From the IMG/VR virus record IMGVR_UViG_3300037225_000932, positions 96,001-160,000 of that record: a DNA stretch of 64,000 bases; one strand, 5' to 3'. Below, one piece after another: positions 25,791-49,000 of this stretch; position 1 is the first letter of the stretch; each line of letters begins with the position of its first letter. The notes beneath the pieces are model-generated. The model ran no database searches and had not been told where the DNA came from. It was given only the letters and a program-made list of their open reading frames with translations. This stretch comes from a virus. The translations under genes and the position numbers were made by a program.

Positions 25791-25999
25791 TCTATAAACA
25801 GAGACACCCTCATATATTTTCTTCTAATCTCTTTCCCAAGAAAAAAAGAAGAAAATGAGGGTGATGGGAAATAGAGACTTTTTAATTGACCGTAGGAGAC
25901 TCGAACTCCTATATCCACCTTAATATTCGGTGGCGTCTTACCAAGTTTAAACGAACGATCTGGTCTCTACTCTCTGTGCCTTACGGCATTCATTAGTAT
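25791..25999 (-). ncRNA. Three-way-junction RNA family A member 1, containing a tRNA-Glu-like domain (25886-25961)
   Basis: P1 ACAGAGA/UCUCUGU, P2 UAGAGAC/GUCUCUA, P3 CACCCUCA/UGAGGGUG, linker-loop UUUCCCA/UGGGAAA. T-arm AGGAG-UUCGAGU-CUCCU; 9-nt anticodon loop. Confidence 0.7.
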
Positions 26000-26018
26000 A
26001 CTGCTTTAGAACTTTCTT

Positions 26019-26844
26019 TTAAATTTCAGGGAGAAATTGTTGATCTCTATTATATCGAATATTTAACCACTCTATAAGATGAAAAGCCTCAAAAAGAGTA
26101 AACCAATGAAGAGGAAAAGAGTGCGTCCAAGCATTATCTGAAGATAAAGTTTGATCAGTAGCTTTTGCCCTGATGATTATAACCATACCATCAGTATTAT
26201 CTTCATAAAATCCTGGACCACAAATGTATACTCTTTCTCCGCAAAGAGTATATTTATACACAAGACCGACTGTAGTAGTTTTCATCTTTTATCCTACTTT
26301 CAAGATTTTAGAACTTTATCTATTTTATCAGGGTATTTTTTGCGCAAAAAAATATCCTCAAGGTGGTGGCACCATCCTCAAGGATATATTTTGTTTTTCT
26401 CGGGGCCTTACTTTAGGCTCTCGGGGTTAAGTAGGACACCCTGAGCAGCCATGTCAGCCCTGAATGCCTCCCGATTGACCGGCGGATTAAGGTGCTGAGC
26501 CAGCTTCTTCGGCTTCTCAGGGATGATATACCCAACTCCGCTCGTAAGAACCCGAACACCCTTACCCTGCCGATGGCCAAATTCTGTCATCATTTTCGTA
26601 TCCCTTTTCTGTTAGTGGTGCTATTTTAGAACTTTTAGTTGTTTTTTCAGGGAGAAATCGGTTGAACCATATTAAAAGTTAAATATTGGTTCAAAGCAGG
26701 ATTGTCTTTATCATTAACGGGATCACCGTTTTCATCTTCATAATCAACTTGATCGCCAGCCACAAACTCCTGATTAACCCAATTTCCAACTTCAGAGTTA
26801 AATGTCTGAACAACGAAACCAGTTGTGATTTTCCTGATCTTCAT
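26019..26844 (-). other. Three single-gene cassettes (26019-26285, 26408-26593, 26647-26844)
   Basis: Motif promoters and RBSs. Confidence 0.6.
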
Positions 26845-26901
26845 ATTAGTATCCTCTTTCGGTGCTGTTTTAGAACTTTATGAAGCTTTTCAGGGAGCAA
26901 C

Positions 26902-27384
26902 TTACCATTTCGCTCCCATCTCTTTAGCCTCATCAAAAGCATTCCAGAACTTAAACTCTTTATTAGTAAGAATGCTAATGGCTTTCTCAGCATCCCTCTC
27001 AGTAAATCCAACATCCTTATTAGTTTGGACAAAATGCCTTAAAACTAAATCTTTCTTAATAGTATCATCCTTGGGATTAAAATCATCTAAAGGCCAATCA
27101 TCAAGAACAACCCAGTTCTCAGGTTTATTTTGCTCAACCCAAAACAAAATCTCATCTAACCGATTACCGTTATCAGAAGTTATTCCAACAAAAGGAATAT
27201 CAAAAACCTTAAAAACATCTTTTACCTGTTGAAGTGCGTTTGGCAGTGTTCGCCAAGTTGAAGAAAGAACTACAGAAGCATTCCCCTTTGAACAAACATT
27301 TTTAAGTAATCCTAAACGAATAGGATCAAGAGTTTGCCCATCTAGGCATAATACTCCATCAATGTCACAAAATATAACATTCAT
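26902..27384 (-). CDS. HAD-superfamily phosphatase of the Swiss-Army-Knife RNA-repair type
   Basis: FCDIDGVL, VLSSTWR and WVVLDD motifs; leaderless start at 27384. Confidence 0.8.
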   Translation of the reverse strand: MNVIFCDIDGVLCLDGQTLDPIRLGLLKNVCSKGNASVVLSSTWRTLPNALQQVKDVFKVFDIPFVGITSDNGNRLDEILFWVEQNKPENWVVLDDWPLDDFNPKDDTIKKDLVLRHFVQTNKDVGFTERDAEKAISILTNKEFKFWNAFDEAKEMGAKW

Positions 27385-27425
27385 ATTCATTTAGAACTGT
27401 ATTTAATTTTTCAGGGTAAATGAAT

Positions 27426-28133
27426 TTAAGTTTGTGGTAAAACAACATTAGGCCAAAACAAAATGATAAAATAAGTATCATCTTTAGTATCAGCATAATG
27501 CCATTTCCCATCAGAAATAGTTTCTAAATATTTTTCTTTTATCACTTCTTTTCCATCAATTGTTAAAAACTTAAAATCAGAAAGATAGGAAGAAAGATAA
27601 GAACCAGAAAAAATACCAACCGGAATATGATCTTCGTGATTTGTTCCTTCTTTGGTGATAAGAAACATTTTATTCACCTTTCAAATCAGGCAAAAGATAT
27701 CTCTCAATAATCTTAGCATCTTGCTCTTTACGGGAATAAATACCAAGAATAGCACTTTCACCAAAACAAGTAATAGAAGGAGATTTAGTGGGATTAGTTT
27801 TATCCCAACAAACATCAACCTTTCCAGCCCCAAGAACCATCTTTCCGTAAGACAGGTTGGCAATATCTTTATGATTTAGATCGCCAGGAAAAATGATAGG
27901 GATATCACCTTCAAGAATAATGTATTTTGGAAACATAATTATTGTCCACGAAGAGTTTTTACATAATCAACAATTTCTTGTTTTTCTTTTTCGTATTTTT
28001 CTCTTGGTGTTCCCAAAAAGGCCCAGCCTTTTTGTATCCAACTTGCTATTCTTTCTGGAGACCATTTACCTTTATACAAACCGCCTTTGTTTGTCACAAT
28101 GTCTTTTATGAATTGTCGAGTGTTATCGTTCAT
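27426..28133 (-). other. Operon of three small hypothetical genes (27939-28133, 27670-27936, 27426-27677)
   Basis: Abutting or overlapping ORFs after a leaderless promoter. 27426 resembles 31639-31869 (PIG.Y/F...IDG......DGKWH). Confidence 0.6.
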
Positions 28134-28172
28134 ACTGATTTAGAACTTTATTTAGATTTTCAGGGCAAAAAA

Positions 28173-28523
28173 CTATTTTCTAAGCAAATAAAAACAAGGA
28201 GATTCAGGTGTTCCTCCTGCTGGAATCCATTCCTGCCATCCTAGCCTGCGAAAGAAATTCGCAAATCTTGGGGTTTGAACGTTTTCCACAAACAGGTTTC
28301 CCGGATAAACATCTTGAACAAATGACAAAAAACGAGTAAATCGTCCTTTACCTTGTTTCTTCACAGATATAGTGGCGATATCTAAAATGTCAATCATCTT
28401 AGGAGGATATCCTAAATATCGCCTACTCTTACGAATGTAGACATCAACATCTTTATCGTGTAACCAAGAATTACGCTTTTGAATATTTAGAAAATCAACC
28501 AATTGTTCTTCTACTAATTTCAT
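28173..28523 (-). CDS. GNAT-like acetyltransferase
   Basis: LDIATISV..QGKGRFT...FVENV...F..FF..LGW. Confidence 0.6.
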   Translation of the reverse strand: MKLVEEQLVDFLNIQKRNSWLHDKDVDVYIRKSRRYLGYPPKMIDILDIATISVKKQGKGRFTRFLSFVQDVYPGNLFVENVQTPRFANFFRRLGWQEWIPAGGTPESPCFYLLRK

Positions 28524-28829
28524 GATCTTTTAGAACTTTCTATTAAAAATCAGTGATTTTCTTATTATTTCTTGCTTATTTCAATAATGGTATCAGTTAT
28601 CTCTTTATCAAGAGATTGAAACGTAACAAGATCACTTTCAACATCAGAGATCCTATCCCTAATTCGATTAAGAAATAAAATAACCGAACTTACAGGAACC
28701 GCATCAATAGGACCACCAGTTGACCAATAAGTGTGTTTTTCTAAAATATCTTTAGTAAGCATCTTGTTTTCCTTTTCAGTGATAGATTAGAACTTTATTT
28801 CTTTTTTCAGGGCTTTTATTTTTGCGCAA

Positions 28830-28969
28830 AAAATAGTATCCGCCAGATATCGTGACGGATACTCTCAAGATTAGCAGTGTTTACTGGCGGAAGCTTAGTC
28901 TCACGGTTAGTCCCATTTCAGGATTCCCAGTAACTTAACTGCTTTATTTAGGAGCCAATAATTTGCTCC
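28830..28969 (-). ncRNA. Structured small RNA cassette
   Basis: Hairpin GGAGC/GCUCC starts at the predicted +1; stems AGCAGU/ACUGCU and UUACUGG/CCAGUAA; terminator GUAUCCG/CGGAUAC. Confidence 0.5.
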
Positions 28970-29077
28970 AATTCCTTAGAATTTTCTATTAAAAATCAGG
29001 GCATTTATTTTTGCGCAAAAAAGAAATCACCCCCAATTGAGGGTGATTTCTTTTACTTTTGAACGATTTAATCGCTT

Positions 29078-29476
29078 TTAGGCGACAACCGTTTCATTCG
29101 TCGCCTCGACGGCGGGGGGAACTGCGGGAGTCTCAGCCGTCTTATTCTTCTCCTTCAACATCTTCGCAAGAACTGCCAACTGGTCAGGAGTCAAATTGAG
29201 ATCATCCAACTTCTTCTGAAGAGCCAACTTGTCCTGCTCAGCCTTATAAGCCGGCAAATCGGTGACTTCAGCAAAAACCGGCAACGGCTCAACAACATAA
29301 ACCCGACCATCAACCGGCTTTGAATTGAGATGATTCACCATTTCAATTCCAACCTCCTTACTCTCGACCATCCCAAGAACCGTGCGAACCACCTTCATAT
29401 TGCTACCCCGACCAGGTGCCTTAGTCGTGTGCTTCTCGAAAACCGCCAAAACCGTCTTGCTCGACGCCGTGTCCAT
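29078..29476 (-). CDS. GRG-motif family protein (paralog 2)
   Basis: Closely similar to 47097-47534 (GRGS...RTV.GMV...HLNSK...VEPL..F.E.TDLPAYK.EQ). Confidence 0.75.
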   Translation of the reverse strand: MDTASSKTVLAVFEKHTTKAPGRGSNMKVVRTVLGMVESKEVGIEMVNHLNSKPVDGRVYVVEPLPVFAEVTDLPAYKAEQDKLALQKKLDDLNLTPDQLAVLAKMLKEKNKTAETPAVPPAVEATNETVVA

Positions 29477-29715
29477 CGTCGTATCCTTTCCTAAAAGGGG
29501 TTTATCGTTACACCCTTTTAGAACTTTAGCCCCACTTTTCAGGGAGATTTTTTTTCGCGCAAAAAAAAATACCCTCAAAGACAACAGTGGTGGTGTCGTC
29601 CTCAAGAGTATTATTGTTTTTTTAATATAATAAATTGCTAACGCAATTTATTATATTAAACTTTTTATGTTTTGTCAATATACTTTGTTCTATTTTGTTA
29701 AAAATAGTTTAAGTT

Positions 29716-30123
29716 TTACCAATTGCTACTATTTTCAACAAACTCTTTCGCTTCAATTAAACTAAGATTTGTCCAATAACGAAGAACCTTAATGGCCTCA
29801 ACTTGAACTTGTCGATTTTGGTTTCGTAAACTACAAATTGACTGAAAAGCCTTCAAGGGAATATTATACCAAGTATTTTGAGAAATAACCGTAACAACCG
29901 GAACCCCATCCTTTATACTCACATTATGACCATGAAAAACAGTAGGAACTTCATTCCGTTTCTTCTCTTCAGCAAGCTTCTCCTGTAAATCATTACTTAA
30001 AGCCTTAATCTCTTCCTGATAAGCCTCTTCAAGAATTCTTAAAGCAGTTTTCTTATACTTATTCTCAAGAACACTTGAAACAATAACAACACGACACATT
30101 TCTTTCTTGTTCTCAATATCCAT
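29716..30123 (-). CDS. Protein with a C-terminal ribosomal bL12 (L7/L12) CTD-like motif
   Basis: VEAIKVLRYWTNLSLIEAKEFVE matches the K.AIK.VR..TGLGLKEAK..VE signature. Confidence 0.65.
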   Translation of the reverse strand: MDIENKKEMCRVVIVSSVLENKYKKTALRILEEAYQEEIKALSNDLQEKLAEEKKRNEVPTVFHGHNVSIKDGVPVVTVISQNTWYNIPLKAFQSICSLRNQNRQVQVEAIKVLRYWTNLSLIEAKEFVENSSNW

Positions 30124-30206
30124 CTTGCCTTTTCCTTTATGTTATACTCTTAGAACTTTAGTTCCCACTTTTCAGGGAGATTTTTTTTCGCGCAAAAAAA
30201 AATAGT

Positions 30207-31869
30207 TCACAAATAACTTTTATTCAACTCTATATCATAAGGTTCATCATAATATAGATAAGGATTATCCTTAATATGCGAATTTACTTCTTCTAAAGAA
30301 GTAAAAATGCCAATAATACAATGATCAGTAGAACGTGTTGCCCCTAAAACCCAAACTTTAGTGATAACTTTATCCATCTTTTTTACTCTAAAAAAGTTTT
30401 TGCTCACTTTCAAAACTCATTTTTTCTACATTTTTATCTAAGTCCCTTGTTTCTCAACCACTTATGTTATTTTTTCGCAAGAAATAAAAAACTTTTCCAC
30501 ACGGGTAAAAAAAAGTTTTATCTACTTCTCTTTAGGACCAATCTTATACTCAGAAGGAACAAATTTATGCCATAGATTACCAGCCTGCTTAAAGATAGTA
30601 ACCCTCTTTGGAGACTTAATAATAAATAAAGTCTCATCTTCATTCGCTTTTACATCAAAATCAGCAATTTGCGCAACAGAATATCCAGCATTCTGATACA
30701 TCGTGATAATTACACACGGAATACCTGCCGGATCAACTCGATGATTTTTCATGTTTTTTACCTAACCTCTTGGAAAATAAACCACTTAGGTAATTTTTTT
30801 CGCAAGATTAAAAAACTTTCTCCCGACGTAAAAAGATATCTTTAGAAACCAACAATGTCAGCCAAACTAACAGCAAAAAGCTCCTTAGCGGTCCACCCCT
30901 CTATAGCAAAATCACTATTATTGACTGTAATATCGCTTAAAACAACGATATCATGGTCCGGACCACCCATAAACTCGAAAATACCTTCCCTGCCAGACCA
31001 AAACGGATGACCACTCTTAACCTTATACTTCTCACCTTTAACCAGCTTCATGATAATCTCCTTAAATTCTTTATTTTATAGGAACTTAGATTAAAAAATC
31101 AGGGAAAGAATAAAAACTTTTCCACACGGGTAAAAAAAGTTTTATGCTGCTACAGAAATACCAGTTTCAACCGTTTGGTGGATAACAATGGTGCCACCCT
31201 TATACCGATAAGGCACATTCGCCTTCAAAGTCTCAGCTAAACCAACCAAACCATACTTCCCAAGCCACCAATTAACATATTCGGCAGCTTCAGTAAGGTC
31301 CAAACAAACCGGACTCACCACTTCACCATTCTCGTAAACCTTAAACATCTTAATTTCCTTCCTTTTCTTTGTTAGTGTTACTTCTTTAGAACTTTATTTC
31401 CCCTTTCAGGGAAAACTTCAAAGAAGTTTTACCTTCAGTTAGGGAAAACTTTAATCTTCTTGACTAATAATGTAATAAATAAATAATGAAACTAAGAACA
31501 TAACAACTAAAAAAACTTGAGGCTCTTGAGTTTCCATAACCTTTTTCTCTATTTTTATCTAACTCCAGTAATTTCAGTGGCTTACGTTAATTTTTTCGCA
31601 AGAATAAAAAAACTTTCTCTCGACGAGAAAAGACATCTTTAACCCTTACGAATTTCTAAATTTAAGTTGATCCTAATAACCCAATACTCCACTCCCTCTT
31701 TCATTACATAAATACCATGCCACTTACCATCTAAAATCAATTCTTTTGACTGTTGAGACCGAGATCCCCAATCACGCCCATCTATACTAGCAAATGGATA
31801 CTTTTCACATAAAACTTCATAATCGTAAACCCCAATAGGCATATTATTCTCAAACGTTACTAAAAACAT
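30207..31869 (-). other. Small hypothetical genes (30207-30377, 30522-30752, 30842-31051, 31142-31348, 31639-31869)
   Basis: ORFs separated by the second repeat family. Confidence 0.55.
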
Positions 31870-31972
31870 GATAGTCTTGTCCTTTTCTTCGTTAAGTGCT
31901 TTATTTCTCAAGAACTTAGATAAGATTTTCAGGGAGAGAATAAAAACTTTTCCACACGGGCAAAAAAAGTTT
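30421..31972. repeat. Second intergenic repeat family
   Basis: AAAAACTTTTCCACACGGG(T/C)AAAAAAAGTTTT x3 (~30486, 31112, 31941); AAAAACTTTCTC(C/T)CGACG..AAAGA(T/C)ATCTTT x2 (~30810, 31608); CTAA-N~20-CTTA...TTTTTTCGCAAGA x3 (~30438, 30762, 31559). Confidence 0.7.
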
Positions 31973-32039
31973 TATCTCTTCAGTAAGTTAGATAATTAAA
32001 ATAGATATCAGGGAGAAATTAAACCAATAATGAAAAAAC

Positions 32040-32420
32040 TAAGTTTGAAACGAAACGGCGAGAAAAAAAATGGTGGGAGGGGGAAAAATGAGGAAGAGGA
32101 CAGAGATTAGAGAAAAATGGAGAGGAGAATAAAGATGAGAGGACACCTGAGCTTTTTTAGGGACACAGTGGGTAAAATACCTACACCTAAGCTTTTTTAC
32201 TAACACAATGGGTAAAATGAGGACGTAATAGGCTTTTATTTAAGCTTTTTTATGGACATTCAGTGTCATTTATACCCAGGTTAGGACATCTTAGGACATT
32301 TATTCTCATCTTTAGACATCTTAAATAACATTTTATTTCAATTATTATTAAAATATAGAAAAGTGGGGCAGAGTGGGGAAAAATGTATTTACAGGGATTT
32401 AGAGCATTTACAAAGACGGA
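32040..32420. repeat. Non-coding purine-skewed tract with short iterated repeats
   Basis: AGCTTTTTTA x3, (G)GACA(C/T) about 7 times, TGGGTAAAAT x2, AGTGGGG x2; no ORF. Confidence 0.55.
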
Positions 32421-32421
32421 T

Positions 32422-32883
32422 TTAGTGGATATTCTTGAGGGGAATTATAGGAACAATTATTTCTTTATCTTGTAATTCATCCCAATCTTTCCAATGAAGA
32501 ATGACATCTAATGGATATACTTTAGGTTTATTATAGTATCCATTTTGAGGTCCAGGTGGATGATTTTTAACATATTGTTGTAGTTTTTCTAAAGAAGTAA
32601 ATACTCCAAGGATATCATAGTCATCATATTGACCAACGGTTAAGACATAAACTTTTTGAATTTCTTTTTCTTCTTTAATTACGACATAACAACCAAAAGT
32701 AGGATAATAGACAAAAGGAACATTTAACATCCAAACATAATCAAGTGGAACGACATGACCCAACCATTTCTTAGCATATTTAATTGCTTTCTTAAAAGTA
32801 TTAAACTTATGGGTTTTCCAACGACTATCAATACTAGCTGGTTTGATAGCAACAACATCGCTTCCGGTATAAACACAGAACAT
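32422..32883 (-). CDS. Hypothetical protein; C-terminus resembles 30207-30377
   Basis: KVYVL......ILGVFTSLE motif shared. Confidence 0.6.
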   Translation of the reverse strand: MFCVYTGSDVVAIKPASIDSRWKTHKFNTFKKAIKYAKKWLGHVVPLDYVWMLNVPFVYYPTFGCYVVIKEEKEIQKVYVLTVGQYDDYDILGVFTSLEKLQQYVKNHPPGPQNGYYNKPKVYPLDVILHWKDWDELQDKEIIVPIIPLKNIH

Positions 32884-33032
32884 TGTTTTATTCCTTATTA
32901 TTTATATTTATCAGTCATATTTCTAGTGAAAGCACCACAAAAAACAAATACGACAATTCCTACAGAAAGGACTAAACAAAATACATTTATGATATTCCAG
33001 ATTATTTCATCTGACATTGTTGTTATTCCTTA

Positions 33033-33311
33033 TTAAGTGGAAGATTTTTTATTTGCGAAAAAAAAAATTAGTTTAACGGCCATAAACATTTGTTGTGTAT
33101 TACAATCAATATACAATCTTCGGTGGGCTGGATAATTATAATTTCCAACTGGTCCTGTATAGTGTAAAATATGTTCTTGATTTTCTCCAACTGCTTTATA
33201 CATTGCTTTATCATAACTAGAAGCAGAGACATCTTTAGAGAAAATAGACCATTGTATTTCTTTATTTAGATCAAATCTCCAAGCACTAAAAATATTATAT
33301 GTATTATTCAT
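33033..33311 (-). CDS. Small leaderless hypothetical protein
   Basis: ATG 6 nt after the promoter. Confidence 0.55.
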   Translation of the reverse strand: MNNTYNIFSAWRFDLNKEIQWSIFSKDVSASSYDKAMYKAVGENQEHILHYTGPVGNYNYPAHRRLYIDCNTQQMFMAVKLIFFFANKKSST

Positions 33312-33353
33312 AATAATATAGAACTTTATTTAAGAGATCAGGGGAGAGAAAGA

Positions 33354-33764
33354 TTATACTTGCCAATTACCTCTATCTTCAAGGCATTTTTCAATATCAA
33401 CATTAGGAAGTTTAGTCCAAATCTTCAAAAGATCAATAGCAGAATAAATCTGTTTAGAAGCCAGCTTATCATGAACAAGATTATAGACTACAACTGGAAT
33501 TTCGGGATAGAAAGTATTCCACTCATCATGTTTAGCTTTTAACTGAACGCACCAAACTCCATCCTTCTTAAATGGAGCCTTATAAGAATTACGAGATTGA
33601 GGAACTTCTTCTATAATACTCTTCTTTGCTTTTTCAATTTCTTCTTTCAGGTGTTGTGAATAAATTAGTTCAAGGTTTTCAAGTGCTGCCAAACGATCAT
33701 TAGCAGTTGCAGCACTATTCAAAACAATAAGGCGAGCAATACGTTGAGCTTGTTCGAGTGTCAT
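33354..33764 (-). CDS. Paralog of 29716-30123 with a degenerate bL12-CTD-like end
   Basis: Shared KDGV..V...IP and SAIDLLKIWTKL...NW. Confidence 0.55.
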   Translation of the reverse strand: MTLEQAQRIARLIVLNSAATANDRLAALENLELIYSQHLKEEIEKAKKSIIEEVPQSRNSYKAPFKKDGVWCVQLKAKHDEWNTFYPEIPVVVYNLVHDKLASKQIYSAIDLLKIWTKLPNVDIEKCLEDRGNWQV

Positions 33765-33812
33765 TTTTATATCTCTTTATTTGTAATAGAGTTATATTTT
33801 TCGGGCAAAAAA

Positions 33813-34862
33813 TTATTTAGCAATTAGTGGGACAGTTGTGATTTTGTATTTAGAAAACTCAAAGGAATTATAGAATGGACTAATGTTAAAATCTTTATAG
33901 ATAAAACCATATTTATTAATTTGTGCAGCATAATGAGAATTAAAGTGGCAAATGAGGAAACTTTCAAAAGCATTATACCATTTTCTGCCTGTTTCTTCAT
34001 TTTCTTCATTTATTTGTTTACAAGACAATTTCCAAGGATCAATATTTTCTTTAATATGATCTGGATGAGATTGTCCGGGCTTCATTTTTGGTTTTAGTGG
34101 TAATTCTTTACAGGGATCAGGATTATTTTGCTTCCATCTTTTTGCTTCTTCTTTTAGACCATTAAAAATTAGACTTACTACTTTATCTTTTTCTAAAAGA
34201 AAAGCAAGATGATCATTTGCTTCTTGTTCGGTGAGACAAGCAGCAATAGGGTCTGAAGTAATATAATAATCTTCATCACTGAGCCGACAAACTAAATAAA
34301 CATTAGACATAGTTAATAAATCCTTTTAAGCCGCTTCAATATCAATTGAATTAGCGGCATTAGGGCGAACAACAATTCTATTATTAGCAGAGATAGAGAT
34401 TGTATTATCTTTCTTAAAAGTCAAAGAAATATCAAGGTATTTTCCGTTGGGGAAAAGGATCTCAATATGGCCGGAGAAAACATTAAGTTCTTTGCCTTGA
34501 CCGGGATAGTGAGAATTATCAAAAACCTTAATTTGTCCTGATTTATCTTCCATTTCAATTATCCTTTCTATTACATTAGAACTTTAATTTAAATCTCAGG
34601 GAAGTGAGCATTCAGAGATATTTTCGATACAAAACTTATTAGGGCAAACATTAGAAGAAAGTAAAGAACCGCAAGACGGGCATTCATTGTCGAAAGAAAC
34701 TCCGCAAGGAAAATCCAAGAAAGTAGTAAAGAAATCTTTCAATGAATTTCTTATATCTTTTCTATCTTGTTCATCTGAAGGTTCAGGAAGTCCGTCAATA
34801 GTAATAGTTTGAGAGCGGATTCCAGCAGCAAGTTCGGCAGGAGTTGTAATAAAGGCTTTCAT
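33813..34862 (-). other. Hypothetical genes 33813-34310, 34326-34553 and 34596-34862 (zinc ribbon)
   Basis: ORFs with RBS or promoter; CPSC..CPNKFC in the last. Confidence 0.6.
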
Positions 34863-34901
34863 AATATAGACTTAGAACTTTATTTAATTTTTCTGGGCAA
34901 A

Positions 34902-35102
34902 TAAAAATACCTTCAAAGGCGATCACTTAGTTCGTCCTCAAGGGTATGATCGGAGCCGCTCTATTTGCTCTATCTTTTTATTAAAATTAGAAGTCAGCGA
35001 AACCTTTATGGTTCATCTGTTGCCCACCTAGGTTTGGCAGAGCAGGGTGCCCATAACTATTTCAGGTTTTAGGTTATGCTCGGTTGCCCAGCACTTGACT
35101 CC
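34902..35102 (-). ncRNA. ~200-nt multibranch small RNA
   Basis: The predicted +1 GGAGUCA pairs with UGACUUC; internal stems CAUAAC/GUUAUG and GAACC/GGUUU; terminator; no ORF. Confidence 0.5.
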
Positions 35103-35121
35103 GATGCTTTAGAACTTTATT

Positions 35122-39840: not shown

Positions 39841-40368
39841 ATGAAAATTATTAAATGTTTACAATGTTCAAAAGAGTTTAATGTGGAAAATTATTGTAAT
39901 CGTAAGTTCTGCTCAATGTCGTGTGCTGGACAATATAATAATTTAGGACGTAATAAAAAAACAATTAAATGTAAAAATTGTGACACTTTAATTATTTCAG
40001 GAAGAACTTATTGTCCAAATTGTATTAAACAATATAAACATATTACAAATCGTATAGATAGTGATAGAACTCTTGCTGAGATGTGTAGCTATAAAAAAAT
40101 GGACGCTAATAGATTTAATTCTATCAGAGAACACGCATCAAGAATTCTTAAAAGTAAAGGAAAACCATGTGAAAGATGCGGATATTCCATACACGTTCAA
40201 GTTTGTCATATAAAACCTATAAGTCAATTTCCAAAAACCGCATTATTATCAGAAATAAACGCCTTATCTAATTTAATTTTATTATGCCCTAATTGCCATT
40301 GGGAATTTGATCATGGTATTATTACTTTAGAACAAATTAGAAAATCATTAACAGACGATCTTCTTTAA
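39841..40368 (+). CDS. HNH endonuclease (free-standing homing type)
   Basis: Cys-rich zinc modules plus CERCG...VCHIKP...NLILLCPNCHWEFD; the only credible plus-strand gene in the array. Confidence 0.85.
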   Translation: MKIIKCLQCSKEFNVENYCNRKFCSMSCAGQYNNLGRNKKTIKCKNCDTLIISGRTYCPNCIKQYKHITNRIDSDRTLAEMCSYKKMDANRFNSIREHASRILKSKGKPCERCGYSIHVQVCHIKPISQFPKTALLSEINALSNLILLCPNCHWEFDHGIITLEQIRKSLTDDLL

Positions 40369-40372
40369 CCCT

Positions 40373-40633
40373 TTAATGAGAGGGAATAAACGGGGCTTCA
40401 ACGCCACAAAGCCTCAAAATCCAACAAACTAGAGCGCAGGGAATTGCGAATTGACCCAGAAATAGACCGCAAATAGCATCAGCATACCAAGGGATTTCTT
40501 TACCTAAAATTGAGAATAAACTATAAGCGAAACAAAGACCGCCAATAGTCACATTCAAAATCAAAATCATAACGAAACAACCGCAATAACCAAAACAAGC
40601 ACTGGCCGCTTCTGAACCATTTAATTTACTCAT
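40373..40633 (-). CDS. Small membrane protein
   Basis: Hydrophobic; AAGGA RBS. Confidence 0.6.
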   Translation of the reverse strand: MSKLNGSEAASACFGYCGCFVMILILNVTIGGLCFAYSLFSILGKEIPWYADAICGLFLGQFAIPCALVCWILRLCGVEAPFIPSH

Positions 40634-40734
40634 TTTTATTTCGTCCTTTATATTATTAAGTGTTTAGATTAGTAAATTATTTTTTTAGGAGAGAAGTTAG
40701 TAATTGGTATTATATTTCTTATTTACTTTATCTA

Positions 40735-40905
40735 CTATATTTTTGTCTTTTTTTCTTGCTATTTCATTTTCTACTTCGCCATAACAATTCATACATAAAA
40801 GATCACATTTTGCCCACTCTTTTTCTATTTCTTCTAAACTTCTTGACCATAATTGGTCTAAAGATAAACCGAATAATTTTTTATCTTTTTCTCTAAGATA
40901 AAAAC
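40735..40905 (-). pseudogene. Remnant of an HNH endonuclease C-terminus
   Basis: Reads ..KDKKLFGLSLDQLWSRSLEEIEKEWAKCDLLCMNCYGE with no upstream start, directly 3' of tRNA-Lys. Confidence 0.5.
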
Positions 40906-40910
40906 TTTAA

Positions 40911-40983
40911 TGGGACCGGAGGGAGTCGAACCCTCGACCAATAGCTTAAAAGGCTACTGCTCTACCTACTGAGCTACAGTCCC
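40911..40983 (-). tRNA. tRNA-Lys(UUU)
   Basis: GGGACUG/CGGUCCC acceptor; anticodon loop CUUUUAA; canonical T-arm. Confidence 0.9.
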
Positions 40984-40987
40984 AAAG

Positions 40988-41098
40988 CGCTTACCTGTAA
41001 GATGATTTTACGCTCAACTATTGCAAATCATTGAGGATATTGTAGATTGCTATTTCTACACTTTTCGTCAAATCATTTAGGCTCTCCTTGGGTAAGCT
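40988..41098 (-). ncRNA. ~110-nt structured RNA co-transcribed 5' of tRNA-Lys
   Basis: Closing helix GCUUACC/GGUAAGC starts at the predicted +1; stems AUGAUUU/AAAUCAU, UGUAGA/UCUACA and CUCAA/UUGAG. Confidence 0.55.
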
Positions 41099-41583
41099 AT
41101 TCTCTTAGAACTTTATTTACTTTTTCAGGGGTTTAACTACATCAATCTTAGACCAATTCATTTTCTCTTTCATTTTTACCACTTTATAGAAGTCAAGAGG
41201 TGAAAGTTTCTCAGTGATAAATAACTTTTCATTTTCCGTTTTCATTTTAACGTTTTCCATTTTTGTTATTTTCCTTACATTCTCTTAGAACTTTATTTAC
41301 TTTTTCAGGGAAAAGTTGTTTTCTTATTGATCTGGAGCTTTCTTAAAATCATCAGGCAAACCGGCATCTCTTAATTCTTGACGAATTAATTGGTCAATAT
41401 CTATAGTTATCGCTTTTTCTTCCCAATGGCTTATATCACACAAGCCTAAAACATTCTTTACTATTTTTTAGTCAATTTCTCAACAAAATCTTCTTCCATA
41501 AATCACCTTTTTGCGAAAAAAAAGAAAAAGTCTAGCAGATTGGGTTCCTATCGAGCCGATAAACGGCACCAGACTATTTCTTA

Positions 41584-43108
41584 TTAACTTAGAACTTTCT
41601 TAAAATGTTCAGGGAGGCCAGCATTTTTTAATTCTTCTCGTATTGTTCGAGCCATATCTTCTCGCATTTGACAATATCCTCTCCAACTAAAATCAAGACC
41701 ATGATCCTGAAGTTTATGTCTAACTACATTATCGCAAAGACATTCAGATAAAGCCTCAGCGAAATCTTTATCTTCCATTTTATTTATCCTCTTTCTCAAG
41801 GTTTTCTTTCAGTTTCATATTATCAGCTTTATTTTTTAGATTATACAAGCAATTTTTAGTGCCATTAACAAATCGGCCCTTTTTGCCTCCATGTAATTTA
41901 GAAGGTCTATTTCTATCTCTTTCTTGGTGTTTAAGGCTTTTTACTTTTTGTTTTTCAGGTCTACTCTCATTCCACTTATCAAAGGTTGGATTACCGAGTG
42001 TCCAACCCTTTTCTTTATCAACGTGTCTACGGGTATCACTCATGTTTTTTATTATCCAATTTAATAGCAAAAAATACCTTTTTCTATTTCTCTTAGAGCT
42101 TTATCCATTCCGTCTCTAAGATAAGTAAGAGTGTCACACAGGGCGTCACGATCATCGCCTGGAATATTATCATGATAATTATTAAAAAATGATAAGTTTA
42201 CTTTAGCTAATTCTATTTGTTTTTCAACAGCAGAAATAGCATTACGACAATGTTTTTCAACCTCCGACGATAACATTTTACCTATCCTTTATTTGTTGCT
42301 TCAATTTCTTTTTGTTGTTTTTCAGTAGGAATACGATAATCAGTGACAACAGAATTAACTAATCCGCACTTATTACATCGCCTATGTTGAACCTTATCGC
42401 AAAAGGCGAAAGGTTCAGGAGTTGACCATTTTGACCAATTATGGAAAAACCAACATTTCATTTTATTATTCCTTAAAGGGAAACAGGAACCTTTCCCAGC
42501 AAATCGACCAGCATATTGATAAAATCAATTTCGTAAGTTTCCTTGCTATACATATCCCAGAGGCCAGATTGATATCTACGATAAGACAAGATGCCTCCCT
42601 TGACGCACCAATAGCCAATACCTGTCTTGCCTCCTGGGGGTCCACCTTCATCGGCGGGAGCGGGGATAAACTTATGGGGAGGATGAGCATCTAATTTAGC
42701 ACTAAATTCTTCTTGCTTCTTATGACGATCATCGGCCATCTTATTAATTACATCGCACCAACCCATATAATCGCTCATAGTCTTATCAGGATCAGGATAC
42801 TTGTCTGGAACGTCCTTTTCAATCTTCTTAGCCATTTTTTTTGTTCCTTTTGTTGCTATTTTAGAACTTTATTATATTTATCAGGGCAAAATAATTTCAA
42901 TTTCATCTACAGCAACGAAAATATGACCAGCTAAATGGGCGGCATCAAGATTAATTCTAATAGGAGTATGATATCCTTCTGAACAAACATCATCAATCTT
43001 GCCAGTTTCGCCGATAAATTCTTGTCCTAAATCGGTTAGATGACCTCTCTTTATCCTAATCCTATCTCCGATTTCAAGTAAAACTCCTTTTCCATCAATA
43101 ATCTTCAT
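41584..43108 (-). other. Small hypothetical genes (41584-41778, 41780-42043, 42061-42276, 42473-42835, 42881-43108)
   Basis: Co-oriented ORFs with RBSs. Confidence 0.55.
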
Positions 43109-43550
43109 ATATTTATTCCTTTTGTTTTATTGTTTTGAGATATCCAATTGGTTCTAATTATTCACCATTAGCAGCATCAATCCAACCATCGTTCCATTGC
43201 CTCCACTCTTCAGTTTCCTTTTGATAAGGATTTTGAGTTCGTCGCTTATCCTCACCAAAAGCATTATAGCCTTGTTCATACGCATTGTCCATTACTACTT
43301 ACTCCAAAAAAATGTTAAAAATCTCTTTTCTTACTATCTTTAGAACTTTATATTTTCTTCGCAGGGAGGAAATTACTTATATTTCTCGTTTAGGTTTTTC
43401 TCCAACCTTAATCATAATAACACTCCAAAGAAGCCAAATATACCAGGGAGACCCAAACCAATAATAATCGCCAACACAACAAGAGAAATAATCATTTTAT
43501 TTTTCCTTTATGTTAGATTTTTTTTCGCAAAAAAAATTAAAGTCCTTTTC

Positions 43551-44255
43551 TTACCGTTCTAATGCTATTTTAATGAAAGCAGCACAGGCAATTAAGAAAC
43601 TATCGTGAAAATTGCTTTCATTAGAAGTAAGAGGATATCCATCTGCTCCATCTACATATCCAGCATAATACTTTGTTGGACTTACTTCTAATATTCGAAG
43701 AATAGTGGAAGCCGTTTGATGCTCCCCACAAATCCGATAATTACAAGCATACTTAATTGGCTTCTTTGCCTTTTGGATTTTTTCATTTTCCTTATTAATA
43801 ACTTCTCTTGCCTGCTCAAAACTATCAAAGTAATAAATGTCTTTCGTCCACTTTCCATCCTTATTCATAAACTCCATCTTATAAGGATCTCGATAAACGT
43901 GAACCTGATAGTTAAGGAAAGTATTTTCTCTTCCATGAAACCTTCCCACCGAACCAGAGAGAAAAACAAGCTTTCCGTCTAATGCAACATTATATTCTTT
44001 TTGAACGGTCTCATTATGACCAAAAAGAGCCCTACAAACTTCATTTACAGAATTAAACCAGTGAGCCCCGGCTGGCTGCCATTTTCCGTTAAAAGTAAGA
44101 TAGTAAATATAGCCATCTATTTTCTTCCAACCATAATACTTGTAATTATTCTCTTCAGAAGCATATTCAAAGGGAGTGTCAATACCGGCAATATGAACCG
44201 TTTGACCATCAAATTCAAAAGACACATCAAATCCGACAGAGCTTTCACGTGTCAT
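43551..44255 (-). CDS. Hypothetical protein, paralog of 37820-38335 with an extra internal repeat
   Basis: See paralog. Confidence 0.7.
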   Translation of the reverse strand: MTRESSVGFDVSFEFDGQTVHIAGIDTPFEYASEENNYKYYGWKKIDGYIYYLTFNGKWQPAGAHWFNSVNEVCRALFGHNETVQKEYNVALDGKLVFLSGSVGRFHGRENTFLNYQVHVYRDPYKMEFMNKDGKWTKDIYYFDSFEQAREVINKENEKIQKAKKPIKYACNYRICGEHQTASTILRILEVSPTKYYAGYVDGADGYPLTSNESNFHDSFLIACAAFIKIALER

Positions 44256-44320: not shown

Positions 44321-45091
44321 TTATTTCCATATCATATCAAATACTTTTACTAATAAATCAGTTGCTTCTTTATCATCAACTCTATCCGGCAAAACAGAAG
44401 TGTCTAAAACTTCTTTAAGTCTTTCTAATCCTTTACCAATATCATCTACGCACTTTTGTGTATCATTCTTATCATAAGTAATACCATTTCTAATATTCAA
44501 AAGATTTTGAATATCTGGCCGTGGAAAAGTAATTTTGCCAGTTTTTAACAATTCTAAACCTTGAGCCGCAATTCTAAAGGCGTGCATTGCGAACTTCGTA
44601 TCAAAACCCTTTTCTTCAGTAATGTATCGTCGTCCAGTTTTATTACTCTGTTTAATTAAAAGTTTATTCATTTGAGAATGTGAAAATCCGTCAAAAGAAA
44701 AATAAACTTTACGACTTAAAAGTTTTAATCCTCTTTCTCTTAACAAATTCCACAAAACATTTTGAAAAACAATACAATTATCTGGAACAAAAAGAGTTTC
44801 AATGACATTAGGATTACAGCCATAAATGAGTTTAACCCATTTTCTAACATCATAGAAATTGACTTCTGAATTAAATTGTTCAAATCGTTTTTGCCAACAA
44901 TCAGGAATCTCACCAGTTATCCATTTGGAGCGTGGTGAATAATAAATTAAAACATAATCATGATCACTTGTCGGAAGTGAAGTTCCATACATTTGAGAAC
45001 CAGAAGTATGAAAAAGAAGAATATTATTTAATATCCATTCTTGTCCATCAGAAATTAGTCTATCAGTTAGACTTTTAATAGTTAGAGGCAT
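44321..45091 (-). CDS. Pol-beta superfamily nucleotidyltransferase (RlaP/YcgL-like)
   Basis: SGSQMYGT..PTSDHDY, CNPNVIETLF, KFAMHAFR and LLNIRNG motifs. Confidence 0.8.
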   Translation of the reverse strand: MPLTIKSLTDRLISDGQEWILNNILLFHTSGSQMYGTSLPTSDHDYVLIYYSPRSKWITGEIPDCWQKRFEQFNSEVNFYDVRKWVKLIYGCNPNVIETLFVPDNCIVFQNVLWNLLRERGLKLLSRKVYFSFDGFSHSQMNKLLIKQSNKTGRRYITEEKGFDTKFAMHAFRIAAQGLELLKTGKITFPRPDIQNLLNIRNGITYDKNDTQKCVDDIGKGLERLKEVLDTSVLPDRVDDKEATDLLVKVFDMIWK

Positions 45092-46995: not shown

Positions 46996-47096
46996 GTCCC
47001 TTATGTTTTATTTTACATCTTTATGATTATTTTCTGGCAATAAGAAATCGTCCCGTTAAGGGCGATTTCTTTAACTTTTGAAGGTTTTAACCGCAA

Positions 47097-47534
47097 TTAG
47101 GCGGTAAAAGCTTCCTCAGTAGCGGGGGCAGTAGTTGCCTCTGGAGCCGGATTAGTTGCCGGAGTTTCAGTCGCGGGAGTGGAAGTTTCGGCCTTGGCTT
47201 CCTTCTTTTCCGCAGCCTTCTTTTCCTTCAGAAGATTGGCCAAAGCAGCCAATTCCTCAGCAGTAAAGTTAGCAATCTTCTCCGCCACGGCCGCTTTAGT
47301 CTGCTCATCCTTATAAGCAGGCAGGTCGGTAATTTCCTCGAAAATAGACAGAGGTTCAACCGCATAAGTCTGTCCCTCTGTCGCCTTAGAATTAAGATGT
47401 GCAACCAGCTTAGTTCCGGTTTCATCATCCTTGACCATCCCGATTACAGTTCGAATGGTCTCACTTCCTCGCCCGACCTTACGAGTTCGCCGTGCCGCAA
47501 TCACCTTAACCGTCTTCTCAGTCTGCGTGTCCAT
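47097..47534 (-). CDS. GRG-motif family protein (paralog 3)
   Basis: Similar to 29078-29476, including the terminator region. Confidence 0.75.
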   Translation of the reverse strand: MDTQTEKTVKVIAARRTRKVGRGSETIRTVIGMVKDDETGTKLVAHLNSKATEGQTYAVEPLSIFEEITDLPAYKDEQTKAAVAEKIANFTAEELAALANLLKEKKAAEKKEAKAETSTPATETPATNPAPEATTAPATEEAFTA

Positions 47535-47632
47535 TTCTCATTTTCCTTTATGTTAGAGGTTTTGGACGACGCTTTCTTAGAACTTTATGGTCAAATTTCG
47601 GGGAAGAGAGGTCTCTTCTCTACCGTCTAACA

Positions 47633-48139
47633 CTATGCGGCTGTTAAGACAGGTAGGTTATAGGCATATTCCCGACTAACTGCTTGAATTTTATTGTTAT
47701 CAAATTTCAAAAACTCATTTCTATCTTTTGCCCACCAAGGCTCAACTGCTTCTTTTATAACTTCAATTTCAGAACCAGGGTATCTATTAGACAATCCTAT
47801 AACTGTAGCAGCAACACATTGATCAAGAAACATTCCACAAACAATAAAGTTTTGAGGTAAATCTAAGGATATAATAATTTTTTGAATTTCAGGACTTCCG
47901 TCTCTAATTGATTTTGTAGCGGAATATAGATAGGGATAGTTTCTGAAAGTTTTTCTTAAAAGAAGATGAGTAGGACCATAATTTTCATATTCCAAAACAA
48001 TAATAGGAATACTATTTATGATCGCATAAGAAGCTAATTTTGCACATTCTATAATACATCTGGTAAAACGTTTTTTAATTTTAGAAGGAAAAAACTTAGA
48101 CTGAACATCTATTATAATAAGAGTTTTATCAGGGCTCAT
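47633..48139 (-). CDS. Isochorismatase-like cysteine hydrolase
   Basis: TLIIIDVQ..F and VCGMFLDQCVAAT motifs. Confidence 0.75.
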   Translation of the reverse strand: MSPDKTLIIIDVQSKFFPSKIKKRFTRCIIECAKLASYAIINSIPIIVLEYENYGPTHLLLRKTFRNYPYLYSATKSIRDGSPEIQKIIISLDLPQNFIVCGMFLDQCVAATVIGLSNRYPGSEIEVIKEAVEPWWAKDRNEFLKFDNNKIQAVSREYAYNLPVLTAA

Positions 48140-48262
48140 ATCTCGTCTCTTTATTAAATAAAAAATCCAGGGAGAATAAAGAAAGATATAGAAACTCTGG
48201 CGAGTTTACACGGTGATCCGGTGACCGATTTTTGTCTTTCTGCTTATTCTACCTGGAAATTA

Positions 48263-48777
48263 TTAGAGTTCAACGATTAACTTACCGAAATCTTCTTTAA
48301 CAACAACATTCCTAAATCCACCAGAGCCAAACAATTCACGATTATAGCAAGTTGTGATACTCCTTATAGGGCTAGACGCTTTAATACAAACAAGATATCC
48401 ATACGCTCGATACCAAATATCTCCCATAGTATCAGAAAAAACATTACCAATCTCAATCTGTTCTGCTGTCTCAGGTTTCTTACTGTTCTTCAGAAAAAGC
48501 TTCATTTTATTGTTCCTTTATTTAGTGCGAAAAAAAATTATTCTTCAACAACAAGCTTACCTAAAACCCTAGAAGCAATAATAGAATAAAAAAGACTACT
48601 ATTGTCCCCTAAAATGGGTTGTAATAGGTTAATGCCATTATCACCATCTTTAAGAGGAATAAGACAATAATCTCCTCTAATAAAAACATTTCCATCTGGA
48701 GTTTCAAAAACATCTCCAACATCTAAACTAGAAGCGTAAATGATACTTTCTGGGTCTTGTTGAATTTTAATATTCAT
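48263..48777 (-). other. Tandem paralog pair 48263-48505 and 48538-48777
   Basis: Shared A..I/L.IG/VG.VF....G..W/F.R...GKL.VE. Confidence 0.6.
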
Positions 48778-48843
48778 TTTATCGTTTCCTTTCTTATCTA
48801 GTGTTAGATTTTGTTTATATTTTTCAGGGAAAAATATTCTGTT

Positions 48844-49000
48844 TCTATAAACAGAAGAACCACCGATTTATCTTTTCCAGGATCAGTGGAAAAGCCGGTG
48901 GTCGATCCTTGTTAGAGAGTTACTATCTTCATTATTTAGCAAATCTCTAAACTCTTCTGTCCCAGCTTTGCGACCATTTCTGGTATCTGGGATACGTTCT
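48844..49000 (-). ncRNA. Three-way-junction RNA family A member 3 (no tRNA insert)
   Basis: P1 ACAGAAGA/UCUUCUGU, P2 UUAGAGA/UCUCUAA, P3 ACCACCG/CGGUGGU, linker-loop AGGAUCG/UGAUCCU, tail UUUAUAGA. Confidence 0.65.

Follow-up and report, generated by a model that had tools for sequence, protein, structure and literature searches.

Architecture of the three loci

The window analysed here, a 64,000-nt stretch of an uncultured 173-kb peat phage (a record estimated to be 88% complete), contains three loci of a small folded RNA on the minus strand, at 25791-25988 (c1), 38397-38637 (c2), and 48844-48992 (c3). The order of elements is common to all of them: a 5' hairpin or domain (P0), the helix P1, the arm P2, a linker, the bulged arm P3, and the invariant tail UUUAUAGA. 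The core, of 117-187 nt, has a single junction whose strands are 0-1 nt, 6-9 nt (variable in sequence), and 0 nt long. The initial annotation had proposed three loci with a common architecture, and all of them were found in place on the minus strand. Minimum free energy (MFE) folding of each copy alone recovered P1, P2, and P3 in all three, with shuffle z-scores of -4.3 (c1), -3.3 (c2), and -4.3 (c3), and none of 200 shuffles folded as well as the real copies. In the covariance-model search that the initial annotation had suggested, a model built from c1 alone retrieved the other two copies at full length, c2 with 66.3 bits and c3 with 32.5 bits (E 1.6e-6); the next-best matches were ordinary tRNAs, through the tRNA part only. 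The small folded RNAs thus form a real family of three members built around a three-way junction.

P1, together with the end of P0 and the single-stranded tail, forms a handle that is nearly identical in all copies. P1 is ACAGAGA/UCUCUGU in c1 and c2 and ACAGAAGA/UCUUCUGU in c3, which differs by one whole base pair inserted on both strands. Its 5' strand was mapped by MFE folding to 25971-25977 (c1), 38571-38577 (c2), and 48953-48960 (c3), in agreement with the alignment for c1 and c2, and its 3' strand together with the tail to 25791-25804, 38397-38410, and 48844-48858, respectively. The common P1 and the tail, which is the same in all three copies, were as first described; conservation of the tail and 3' end of c1 and c2 might, however, reflect only a duplication that included the downstream promoter region. 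A shared 5' hairpin had also been proposed; the element is present in each copy, but its form differs. According to the MFE folds, it is a 4-bp GNRA hairpin (UGCC-GUAA-GGCA) adjoining P1 in c1 (25977-25988), a domain of approximately 60 nt with a weak GCC/GGC closure adjoining P1 in c2 (38578-38637), and a nested hairpin (UCCCAG...CUGGGA, inner ACCA-GAAA-UGGU) in c3 (48960-48992).

Covariation and the loop-linker pairing

The ends of c1 and c2 are 87-100% identical, whereas their interiors have diverged with pairing retained. In the three-way alignment, which was model-fitted, is biased towards structure, and contains only three sequences, 25 of 53 pairs were altered on both sides, compared with 10.1 +/- 2.5 in shuffles and 1-4 with the partners slid; the share of cells that paired was 98.5%, compared with 82.5% and 44-50%, respectively. 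The compensatory changes were spread across P2 and P3, consistent with the original proposal that the sequences of these arms vary while their pairing is kept, and several helices contain G-U pairs that are functional on one strand only.

The P3 arm of c1 (25805-25863, minus strand, as are all features below) consists of a 9-bp lower stem, a 3-4-nt A/U bulge on the 3' strand, an upper stem of 8-9 bp, and a 21-nt loop. That of c2 (38411-38459) has a lower stem of 9 bp, a 6x7 internal loop, an upper stem of 6 bp, and a 6-nt loop, and that of c3 (48859-48902) has a lower stem of 7 bp, a 1x6 internal loop, an upper stem of 8 bp, and a 7-nt loop. In each copy the linker is complementary to the P3 loop over 6-7 Watson-Crick pairs, with a different sequence every time: UUUCCCA (25865-25871, the 5' half of the pairing) with UGGGAAA (25832-25838, the 3' half) in c1; CUACCA (38460-38465) with UGGUAG (38433-38438), the entire loop, in c2; and AGGAUCG (48903-48909) with UGAUCCU (48879-48885), six Watson-Crick pairs and one G-U pair, in c3. 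Compared with random linkers of equal length, the Watson-Crick runs gave p = 0.004 (c1), 0.00035 (c2), and 0.003 (c3), and non-cognate combinations of linker and loop produced runs of only 2-4. The calculated duplex energies were -8.7 to -9.7 kcal/mol for cognate and -2.3 to -5.7 kcal/mol for non-cognate combinations. The copy-specific complementarity noted in the initial annotation was thus confirmed (per-copy p of 0.0004-0.004), and the covarying loop-linker pairing is far beyond chance.

These data bear directly on whether the loci are features of DNA, such as remnants of miniature inverted-repeat elements, or fortuitous hairpins. P1 does resemble terminal inverted repeats of 7-8 bp, and the family is limited to one genome; however, the compensatory changes through P2 and P3, G-U pairs that fit one strand only, and an interior that has diverged yet still pairs all argue against such an origin, as does a joint chance of the loop-linker match of approximately 1e-8 before correction for site choice. 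This explanation, already disfavoured, is scarcely credible.

Whether the loop pairs with its own linker or with that of another molecule is a separate matter. The initial annotation had preferred oligomers of the phi29 pRNA type purely from geometry, and the choice it posed between a hinge and an oligomer seems fair. The P3 bulge lies in the middle of the arm in all three copies, with lower and upper halves of 9/9, 9/6, and 7/8 bp. A central bulge with halves about equal in length is what folding back in cis would require, so that an intramolecular pairing appears at least as likely, and a P3 fold-back is geometrically plausible. A turn of nearly 180 degrees at a bulge of 3-7 nt would nevertheless be demanding, especially in c3 with its 1x6 loop.

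In the alternative arrangement, the loop of one molecule would pair with the linker of the next to build dimers, rings, or chains of a single RNA species, in the manner of phi29 pRNA or of the ROOL and GOLLD cages; sequences specific to each copy would keep the three assemblies orthogonal, and the tRNA-like domains described below would be displayed or enclosed. In c2 and c3, where the pairing segments flank a P3 of 15-17 bp, the linker runs directly into P3 and the loop segment directly into its stem; the cis form would therefore be strained. The pairing sequences of c1 and c2 have diverged completely while their ends remain 87-100% identical, and the cognate and non-cognate duplex energies are cleanly apart. 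This divergence fits selection for orthogonality, although it would be expected from pairing in cis or in trans alike. Against oligomers, the central bulge present in all copies, which cis pairing explains, has no evident role in trans, a single contact of 6-7 bp per interface is weak for a stable assembly, and the scaffold matches no pRNA, ROOL, or GOLLD model in Rfam. On balance, we consider this arrangement somewhat unlikely and retain pairing in cis as the preferred reading.

tRNA-like domains in the P2 arm

P2 had been described as a pairing arm, which it is; a plain hairpin, however, was found only in c3. The P2 of c1 and c2 consists of a long leader-trailer helix with a tRNA cloverleaf at its tip, such that these arms hold an embedded, degenerate, Glu-like tRNA. 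In c1, the base helix GUAGAGAC/GUCUCUAU (arm at 25871-25970; MFE fold and Rfam) surrounds a tRNA-like domain at 25886-25961 that scored 31 bits with the Rfam tRNA model (RF00005). This domain has U8, A14, G18G19, and the T-loop UUCGAGU, together with an A1-A72 mismatch and a 9-nt anticodon loop, GAAUAUUAA, or alternatively a 7-nt loop with G.A closure that lacks U33 and R37; ARAGORN called it only at the 80% threshold, with a non-canonical loop. In c2, a 14-bp leader-trailer helix (arm at 38466-38570) leads via a 3-nt bulge into the acceptor stem of a tRNA at 38482-38555 with the anticodon UUA (ochre-suppressor type), which was called by ARAGORN at the default threshold and scored 36.1 bits with RF00005. 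It has a 7-nt loop, GUUUAAA (U33, A37), two mismatches in the T stem, and no encoded CCA. Both scores exceed the gathering score of 29, whereas c3, the P2 of which (48912-48950) is a plain bulged hairpin with an 11-nt loop, did not match the model. The domains of c1 and c2 are closest to each other (0.66) and next to the phage tRNA-Glu(UUC) (0.61), and the 5' and 3' ends of both are held in the P2 helix.

We considered whether the scaffold is simply the leader and trailer of two odd tRNA genes, serving in processing or stability, with c3 as a decaying copy that has lost its tRNA. Both c1 and c2 are promoter-to-tRNA units, and in c1 the nucleotide at -1 is unpaired and the 8-nt trailer is A/U-rich, which resembles a normal precursor. 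The tRNA domains themselves are degenerate, however, both in the 9-nt loop of c1, which lacks U33 and R37, and in the two T stem mismatches of c2, and the phage's remaining tRNAs do without a context of this sort; none of the three ordinary tRNAs in the window lies within a scaffold of this kind. Moreover, c3 retains a perfect P1, P2, and P3, the loop-linker complementarity, and the tail, and this intact scaffold argues against decay. A mere precursor is therefore improbable. Since P1, P3, the tail, and the loop-linker pairing are all present in c3, the scaffold works without a tRNA, and the tip of P2 tolerates cargo, a degenerate tRNA in c1 and c2 and a plain loop in c3. General suppression by a free c2 tRNA(UUA) is not expected, since among 165 ORFs with 100 aa or more, 108 terminate in TAA and the long ORFs are already intact under the standard code.

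Genomic context and transcription signals

A promoter-like motif, CCCTGAAA-N-AAGTTCTAA, occurs in 35 copies, all on the minus strand, and both c1 (26006-26031) and c2 (38664-38689) have their own copy upstream. The orientation of the tRNAs agrees with the minus-strand reading of c1 and c2. No such motif of its own was found for c3, which starts 36 nt past the stop codon of the ORF at 49028-49525. Further copies of the motif follow each locus, starting 8 nt downstream of the tail of c1 (25757-25782), 8 nt downstream of c2 in a degenerate form (38363-38388), and 14 nt downstream of c3 (48804-48829). The genes flanking the RNAs are orphans in which no Pfam domains were found. The phage also carries many stand-alone non-coding cassettes, a tmRNA, and an amber-suppressor tRNA, as well as a weak match to the GTPase-centre region of 23S rRNA.

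The proximity of each copy to the next promoter motif (8-14 nt), the position of c3 within the 3' UTR of its upstream gene, and the absence of a canonical intrinsic terminator after c1 or c2 raise the possibility of a cis-acting element at the transcript end, that is, a terminator, insulator, or 3'-end protector just ahead of the next promoter. Other cassettes of the phage already use ordinary terminators of a hairpin and a U-tract, however; the helix beside the short U run here is the weak, AU-rich 7-bp P1, and termination requires neither a covarying tertiary pairing nor a tRNA-shaped arm. We therefore regard this function as very improbable.

Comparison with known RNAs

No homologues were detected elsewhere in the genome, among 20 distant relatives, or by pattern scans across IMG/VR and JGI metagenomes, and no population variants of the three RNAs were found; the sample consists of three paralogues in a single genome. 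An Rfam scan returned no family that fits the scaffold of c1, c2, or c3, in keeping with the initial annotation, which had recognised none. The Phage_pRNA model matched none of the three loci at the gathering score or at E values up to 10 or 5. The fold is well supported, and the type of RNA is previously undescribed. Several other classes were also searched for. The CUGANGA, GAAA, and UH core of a hammerhead or other three-way-junction ribozyme was absent, with no ribozyme family in the Rfam scans; the reverse transcriptase domain of retrons (PF00078) is absent from the record; and no motif is shared with the 3' region of the phage's own TnpB element (L234:700-1300, minus strand), as a TnpB omega/reRNA would require.

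The phi29 pRNA has a bulge loop and a hairpin loop that pair via 4 nt; it is a single gene of the approximately 20-kb phi29-like phages and docks on the portal. In 1998-era work, Guo and Zhang reportedly found that its covarying complementarity between two loops of one sequence actually pairs between molecules. The present RNAs share with it a three-way-junction core, a helix formed from the 5' and 3' ends, and covarying complementarity, but they pair a junction linker with a hairpin loop over 6-7 nt and occur as three orthogonal paralogues in a 173-kb phage, two of which bear a tRNA-like arm. The covarying kissing loop of ROOL, first interpreted as tertiary, turned out to be quaternary, a precedent for pairing in trans, and such phage RNAs adjoin or contain tRNAs; phage tRNAs are sometimes located within the GOLLD linker (bioRxiv 10.1101/2024.12.08.627333). 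Like the present RNAs, GOLLD and ROOL, which are large, ornate RNAs of phages and prophages, are phage-encoded, lie among tRNA genes, sometimes embed tRNAs (in the variable region of GOLLD), and have an architecture held by covarying loop pairings. Unlike them, GOLLD and ROOL are proven RNA-only cages of 500-800 nt or more with dozens of helices, whereas the cores of the present RNAs, at 117-187 nt, have one junction, fall short of the 500 nt exceeded by that class, and gave no match to its Rfam models.

Bacterial and phage Y RNAs mimic tRNA (PMC4201824; bioRxiv 10.1101/312249), and in YrlA and other Y RNAs, which are often present as several paralogues, a terminal stem accompanies the tRNA-mimicking module (PMC4201824). 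A comparable ribonucleoprotein, in which the terminal stem and tail serve as the binding site for a Ro60-like protein or another ring protein while the tRNA-like arm tethers an effector, would account for the similar layout, in which a conserved stem joins the 5' and 3' ends and is combined with a variable module and a mimic of tRNA. The topology differs, however: YrlA has a closed acceptor end and extends towards its Ro60 site through the anticodon stem, whereas in the present RNAs it is the acceptor stem that runs on into P2 and connects the tRNA-like module to the scaffold, with the anticodon loop left free. Furthermore, YrlA (RF02553) did not match any of the three loci even at E values up to 5-10, no TROVE/Ro60 domain (PF05731) was found in the 173-kb record, although control genomes matched, and the record contains no RtcB gene. 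A Y-RNA-like particle is accordingly highly improbable.

For pairing in cis, the SAM-I riboswitch provides a structural analogy only. As reportedly described by Montange and Batey in 2006, one of its helices bends sharply at an internal motif, bringing its terminal loop into pairing with a junction strand, which locks the multi-helix junction. In SAM-I, the bend is a canonical kink-turn and the RNA serves as a cis-regulatory 5' leader, whereas the bulges of the present RNAs miss the kink-turn consensus and the element precedes no regulated ORF within its transcript unit. The T4 species 1 and 2 RNAs (rnaC and rnaD), small stable phage RNAs of unknown function encoded beside phage tRNAs, share the small size and tRNA neighbourhood but no kinship in sequence or structure, and they are not known to carry a tRNA embedded in a junction arm.

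A possible role for the RNAs

Taken together, c1, c2, and c3 are probably paralogues encoding a small, stable non-coding RNA specific to the phage. We tentatively favour, as a quite possible reading, a scaffold RNA with a cis-locked P3 and tRNA-like cargo that would act in trans as a carrier early in infection. In this model, P3 would bend back at its central A/U-rich bulge, and its loop would reach the linker at the foot of the arm within one molecule, locking the junction as a compact bundle. The handle could then serve all copies as the site at which a protein or nuclease recognises or processes them. The carrier might display its aberrant tRNA-shaped domains as a decoy for a host factor that binds tRNA; alternatively, these domains may be released by RNase P and 3' nucleases, after which the scaffold halves would stay joined by P1 and P2 as a two-piece equivalent of c3.

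It is unlikely, although conceivable, that the family instead represents a minimal (approximately 120-190 nt) natural self-assembling RNA, each paralogue forming its own homo-oligomer through a programmable loop-linker address of 6-7 bp. If so, a single phage would produce three orthogonal RNA assemblies, two of them displaying or sequestering tRNA-shaped domains, resembling in miniature the ROOL and GOLLD cages and the pRNA ring. The presence of embedded tRNA-like domains in two of the three P2 arms alters the probable role of the RNA.

A family of three structured RNAs

Three minus-strand loci of the phage (c1, 25791-25988; c2, 38397-38637; and c3, 48844-48992) share the order of elements described in the initial annotation: a 5' hairpin or domain (P0), a helix formed by both ends (P1), a junction arm (P2), a single-stranded linker, a second, long and bulged junction arm (P3), the 3' strand of P1, and a 3' tail (UUUAUAGA). 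When each copy was folded separately, its minimum-energy structure had this same architecture, with z-scores of -4.3, -3.3, and -4.3 for c1, c2, and c3, respectively, relative to dinucleotide shuffles. P1 of c3 contains one base pair more than that of c1 and c2, with one nucleotide added to each strand. With c1 as its only input, a covariance model (R2) recovered both other copies over their full length, c2 with a score of 66.3 bits and c3 with 32.5 bits (E 1.6e-6); its next-best matches were two plain tRNAs, found via the tRNA part. A single-sequence model of c3 lacked the power to detect c2.

The pairing of P2 and P3 was also found to be kept despite sequence change, as had been claimed. In a model-fitted, three-row alignment, 98.5% of the cells paired and both sides had changed in 25 of the 53 pairs, a count that excludes the loop-linker pairing and treats the loops as unaligned insert columns; column shuffles gave 10.1 +/- 2.5 such changes and slid partners 1-4. 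MAFFT alignments were left out as structurally wrong. Covariation in this alignment provides good but not overwhelming support for the predicted fold.

The ends of c1 and c2 are identical at 10/10 positions across the P0 end and the P1 5' strand taken together, and 87% identical over the last 45 nt (the 3' strand of P1, the tail, and the start of the next promoter), versus 44-50% in the linker, upper P3, and loop and 64% in the tRNA. Conserved ends around a diverged interior imply constraint on or homogenisation of the ends, fast diversification of a pairing 'address', or both. Pairing of the tail with the 5' leader was rejected, as a 7-bp match was present in c3 only.

That the RNAs belong to no known family was upheld: at gathering thresholds, Rfam found three tRNAs only in the window, and permissive scans of the three loci added only two embedded tRNAs. 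The Rfam scans gave no match to pRNA, GOLLD, ROOL, YrlA, or any ribozyme, riboswitch, or rRNA, and the phage record contains no gene for TROVE (Ro60), RtcB, or a reverse transcriptase. Hammerhead, twister, and pistol ribozymes were rejected because the conserved core is absent, and a canonical kink-turn in the P3 bulges because the tandem G.A consensus is absent. A MITE or IS remnant, a retron, a TnpB guide RNA, and an rRNA mimic were dropped as well; the three loci had no rRNA match. The loci constitute a real, previously uncatalogued family of small phage RNAs with a tRNA-bearing arm, comprising three paralogues in one genome.

Copy-specific loop-linker pairing

As originally proposed, the linker, which lies between P2 and P3, complements the apical loop of P3 in every copy, through seven Watson-Crick pairs in c1, six in c2, and six plus one G-U pair in c3; the pairing sequences of the three copies are mutually unrelated. 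Among random linkers matched in length and composition, the Watson-Crick run was attained with p = 0.004, 0.00035, and 0.003. All six non-cognate combinations gave runs of only 2-4, and duplex energies were -8.7 to -9.7 kcal/mol for cognate and -2.3 to -5.7 kcal/mol for non-cognate pairs. An unbiased scan showed that other 6-8-nt complementarities, mostly A/U-rich with G-U pairs, arise by chance in these RNAs; thus, the argument rests on one pair of sites being complementary in three of three copies, for which the joint chance is below approximately 1e-7 when some 15 alternative site pairs are allowed for. The predicted copy-specific pairing, tertiary or quaternary, is statistically solid. A role of the linker as an anti-Shine-Dalgarno sequence was rejected, since c1 is the only copy in which it partly complements the ribosome-binding site downstream.

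The strand order (linker, 5' strand of P3, loop, 3' strand of P3) has the topology of an H-type pseudoknot, with zero spacers in c2 and c3, and without spacers such pairing is impossible on a straight P3 of 15-17 bp. Within one molecule (in cis), the internal bulge could serve as a hinge on which P3 folds back. Riboswitch junctions provide known examples of such fold-back pseudoknots. Folding back needs two halves of P3 that are roughly equal in length, as is seen in every copy: the lower and upper halves measure 9 and 9 bp in c1, 9 and 6 bp plus a 6x7 loop in c2, and 7 and 8 bp in c3, and the crossing consists of 0-6 nt on the 5' strand and a 3-7-nt A/U-rich bulge on the 3' strand. Alternatively, loop and linker might pair hand in hand between molecules (in trans) by analogy with pRNA, and in ROOL a covarying kissing loop regarded as 'tertiary' turned out to be quaternary. 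We rate pairing in cis somewhat above pairing in trans because it would explain the central bulge of P3. With three naturally occurring 'specificity variants' of a single tertiary pairing, the family provides a ready-made test of cis versus trans.

tRNA-like domains in the P2 arm

The P2 arm of the earlier fold was retained, but its reading as a simple helix failed for c1 and c2, in which embedded tRNA domains had been overlooked. P2 of c2 encloses a tRNA with the anticodon UUA (ARAGORN; 36.1 bits with the Rfam tRNA model) and two T-stem mismatches, whose leader pairs with its trailer over 14 bp; a 3-nt bulge connects this helix to the acceptor stem, with which it is continuous. P2 of c1 encloses a tRNA-shaped domain (31 bits with the same model) in which the tertiary-contact nucleotides are all present; it has an A1-A72 mismatch and an anticodon loop of 9 nt, or of 7 nt closed by a G.A mismatch, without U33 and purine 37, and ARAGORN called it at a lowered threshold only. 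Here, an 8-bp helix is followed by a 1x8 asymmetric loop before the acceptor stem. c3 has a plain hairpin at the P2 position. The two domains are most similar to each other (identity of 0.66), followed by the phage tRNA-Glu(UUC) (0.61). No such scaffold surrounds the ordinary tRNA-Ile, tRNA-Lys, and tRNA-Glu of the window.

Both 'anticodon' loops contain 6 self-complementary nt, UUUAAA in c2 (38520-38526, minus strand) and AAUAUU in c1 (25919-25927, minus strand). The former follows from U33 plus UUA plus A37A38, and the latter recalls dimerisation loops; both could be due to chance in A/U-rich loops.

Genomic context

The window covers bases 96001-160000 of the phage record in IMG/VR. This 173,351-bp record is estimated to be 88% complete, has a G+C content of approximately 35%, and leaves long ORFs intact under the standard code. 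According to a listing of sequencing runs, peat metagenomes contain the phage and freshwater runs account for small shares; none of the listed runs is of RNA. One peat-run contig passes directly from 36890 to 37578 and lacks the intervening 687 bases, an indication that the phage population includes a deletion variant.

Small minus-strand units are arrayed from position 16.9 kb of the window onward and continue beyond its end. At the head of each is a two-block promoter-like motif, CCCYGAAA-N(8-12)-AAGTTCTAA, which is not sigma-70-like and is present in 35 strict copies of a single orientation (16895-62569 and beyond, minus strand), each in front of either a small ORF or a cassette that is non-coding; looser variants (CCCTGATAA...) occur too. 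Many units have no ORF, yet have good predicted folds. Strong structures were predicted for the ORF-free cassettes at 34863-35121, 31349-31638, 28763-29077, 23521-23759, and 22189-22427 (minus strand), none of which matched R3, the covariance model used for homologue searches. The cassette at about 34.9-35.1 kb (minus strand) forms a predicted multi-branch RNA with the closing helix AUCGGAGUC/GGCUCCGAU. Canonical hairpin-plus-U-tract terminators lie upstream of several promoters at 17.9-30.2 kb (e.g., 17949-17975, 21240-21270, and 29545-29570) and continue into a palindromic, conserved TTTTTTGCGC(G)AAAAAA element directly before the promoter motif. A stand-alone non-coding cassette at 24470-24515 (minus strand) weakly matched positions 1097-1144 of the bacterial LSU rRNA model (16.5 bits, E 0.005), the region of the GTPase-associated centre.

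Outside the window, ARAGORN identified a tmRNA with the tag ANTELALAA (record C1:25567-25940, plus strand) and a tRNA with the amber-suppressor-type anticodon CUA (record C1:45284-45358, plus strand); TAG is the stop codon of just 16 of the 165 long phage ORFs. An ORF with an RlaP domain (RNA-repair-pathway nucleotidyltransferase, PF10127, E 2e-15) is located at 44321-45091 (minus strand), between tRNA-Glu and the other tRNAs. Genes for a patatin-like phospholipase (10271-11251, plus strand, E 6.5e-20) and a GDSL lipase domain protein (3395-5200, minus strand) lie within the lower-G+C part of the window (0.25-0.28).

Search for relatives

In IMG/VR, the tail alone gave only chance matches among the matches listed, the tail plus promoter pattern an unrelated coding repeat plus chance matches, and the promoter motif 12 single matches, all by chance; a pattern of P1 and tail separated by 140-170 nt and a c3-type pattern gave none. 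The gapped P1-tail pattern had 30 matches in JGI metagenomes, none with the tRNA, P3, or promoter. Among 20 mostly megaphage-sized records with a related portal protein (40-66% identity), the tail motif occurred at control frequency and R3 found ordinary tRNAs only. On the phage's own genome, R3 found the three copies plus tRNA-Glu via its tRNA part, and no fourth copy. The flanking ORFs contained no Pfam domain, and neither the 171-aa protein downstream of c2 nor the isochorismatase-like protein downstream of c3 had relatives among 5.8 billion proteins. Four metagenome runs over 24250-44249, a stretch that holds c1 and c2, revealed no element variants; c1 was identical and c2 thinly covered. 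Comparative evidence is therefore confined at present to the three paralogues.

Proposed function

TAA ends 108 of the 165 long phage ORFs, with no evident TAA recoding, so an efficient free ochre suppressor would hit the phage's own genes. This, together with the degenerate tRNA features and the sequestered ends, argues against ordinary decoding and favours a tRNA-shaped domain that is carried or displayed. If displayed, the domain might be a decoy for a tRNA-binding host factor; alternatively, it could be cargo whose release is controlled. The scaffold would have a role of its own, since c3 keeps it without a tRNA. We further infer that the nearly invariant handle of P0, P1, and tail may have one common partner or processing enzyme, as its conservation suggests.

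Structured phage RNAs near tRNA genes, such as GOLLD, ROOL, and the small RNAs of T4 and T5, are a long-standing puzzle. All of the present evidence comes from three paralogues of one uncultured peat phage; the size of these RNAs suits mutagenesis, chemical probing, and structure determination. The degenerate embedded tRNAs, including one of the ochre type in a genome with TAA as the stop codon of two thirds of its genes, point to RNA-level manipulation of the host tRNA-handling or translation machinery rather than to ordinary decoding.
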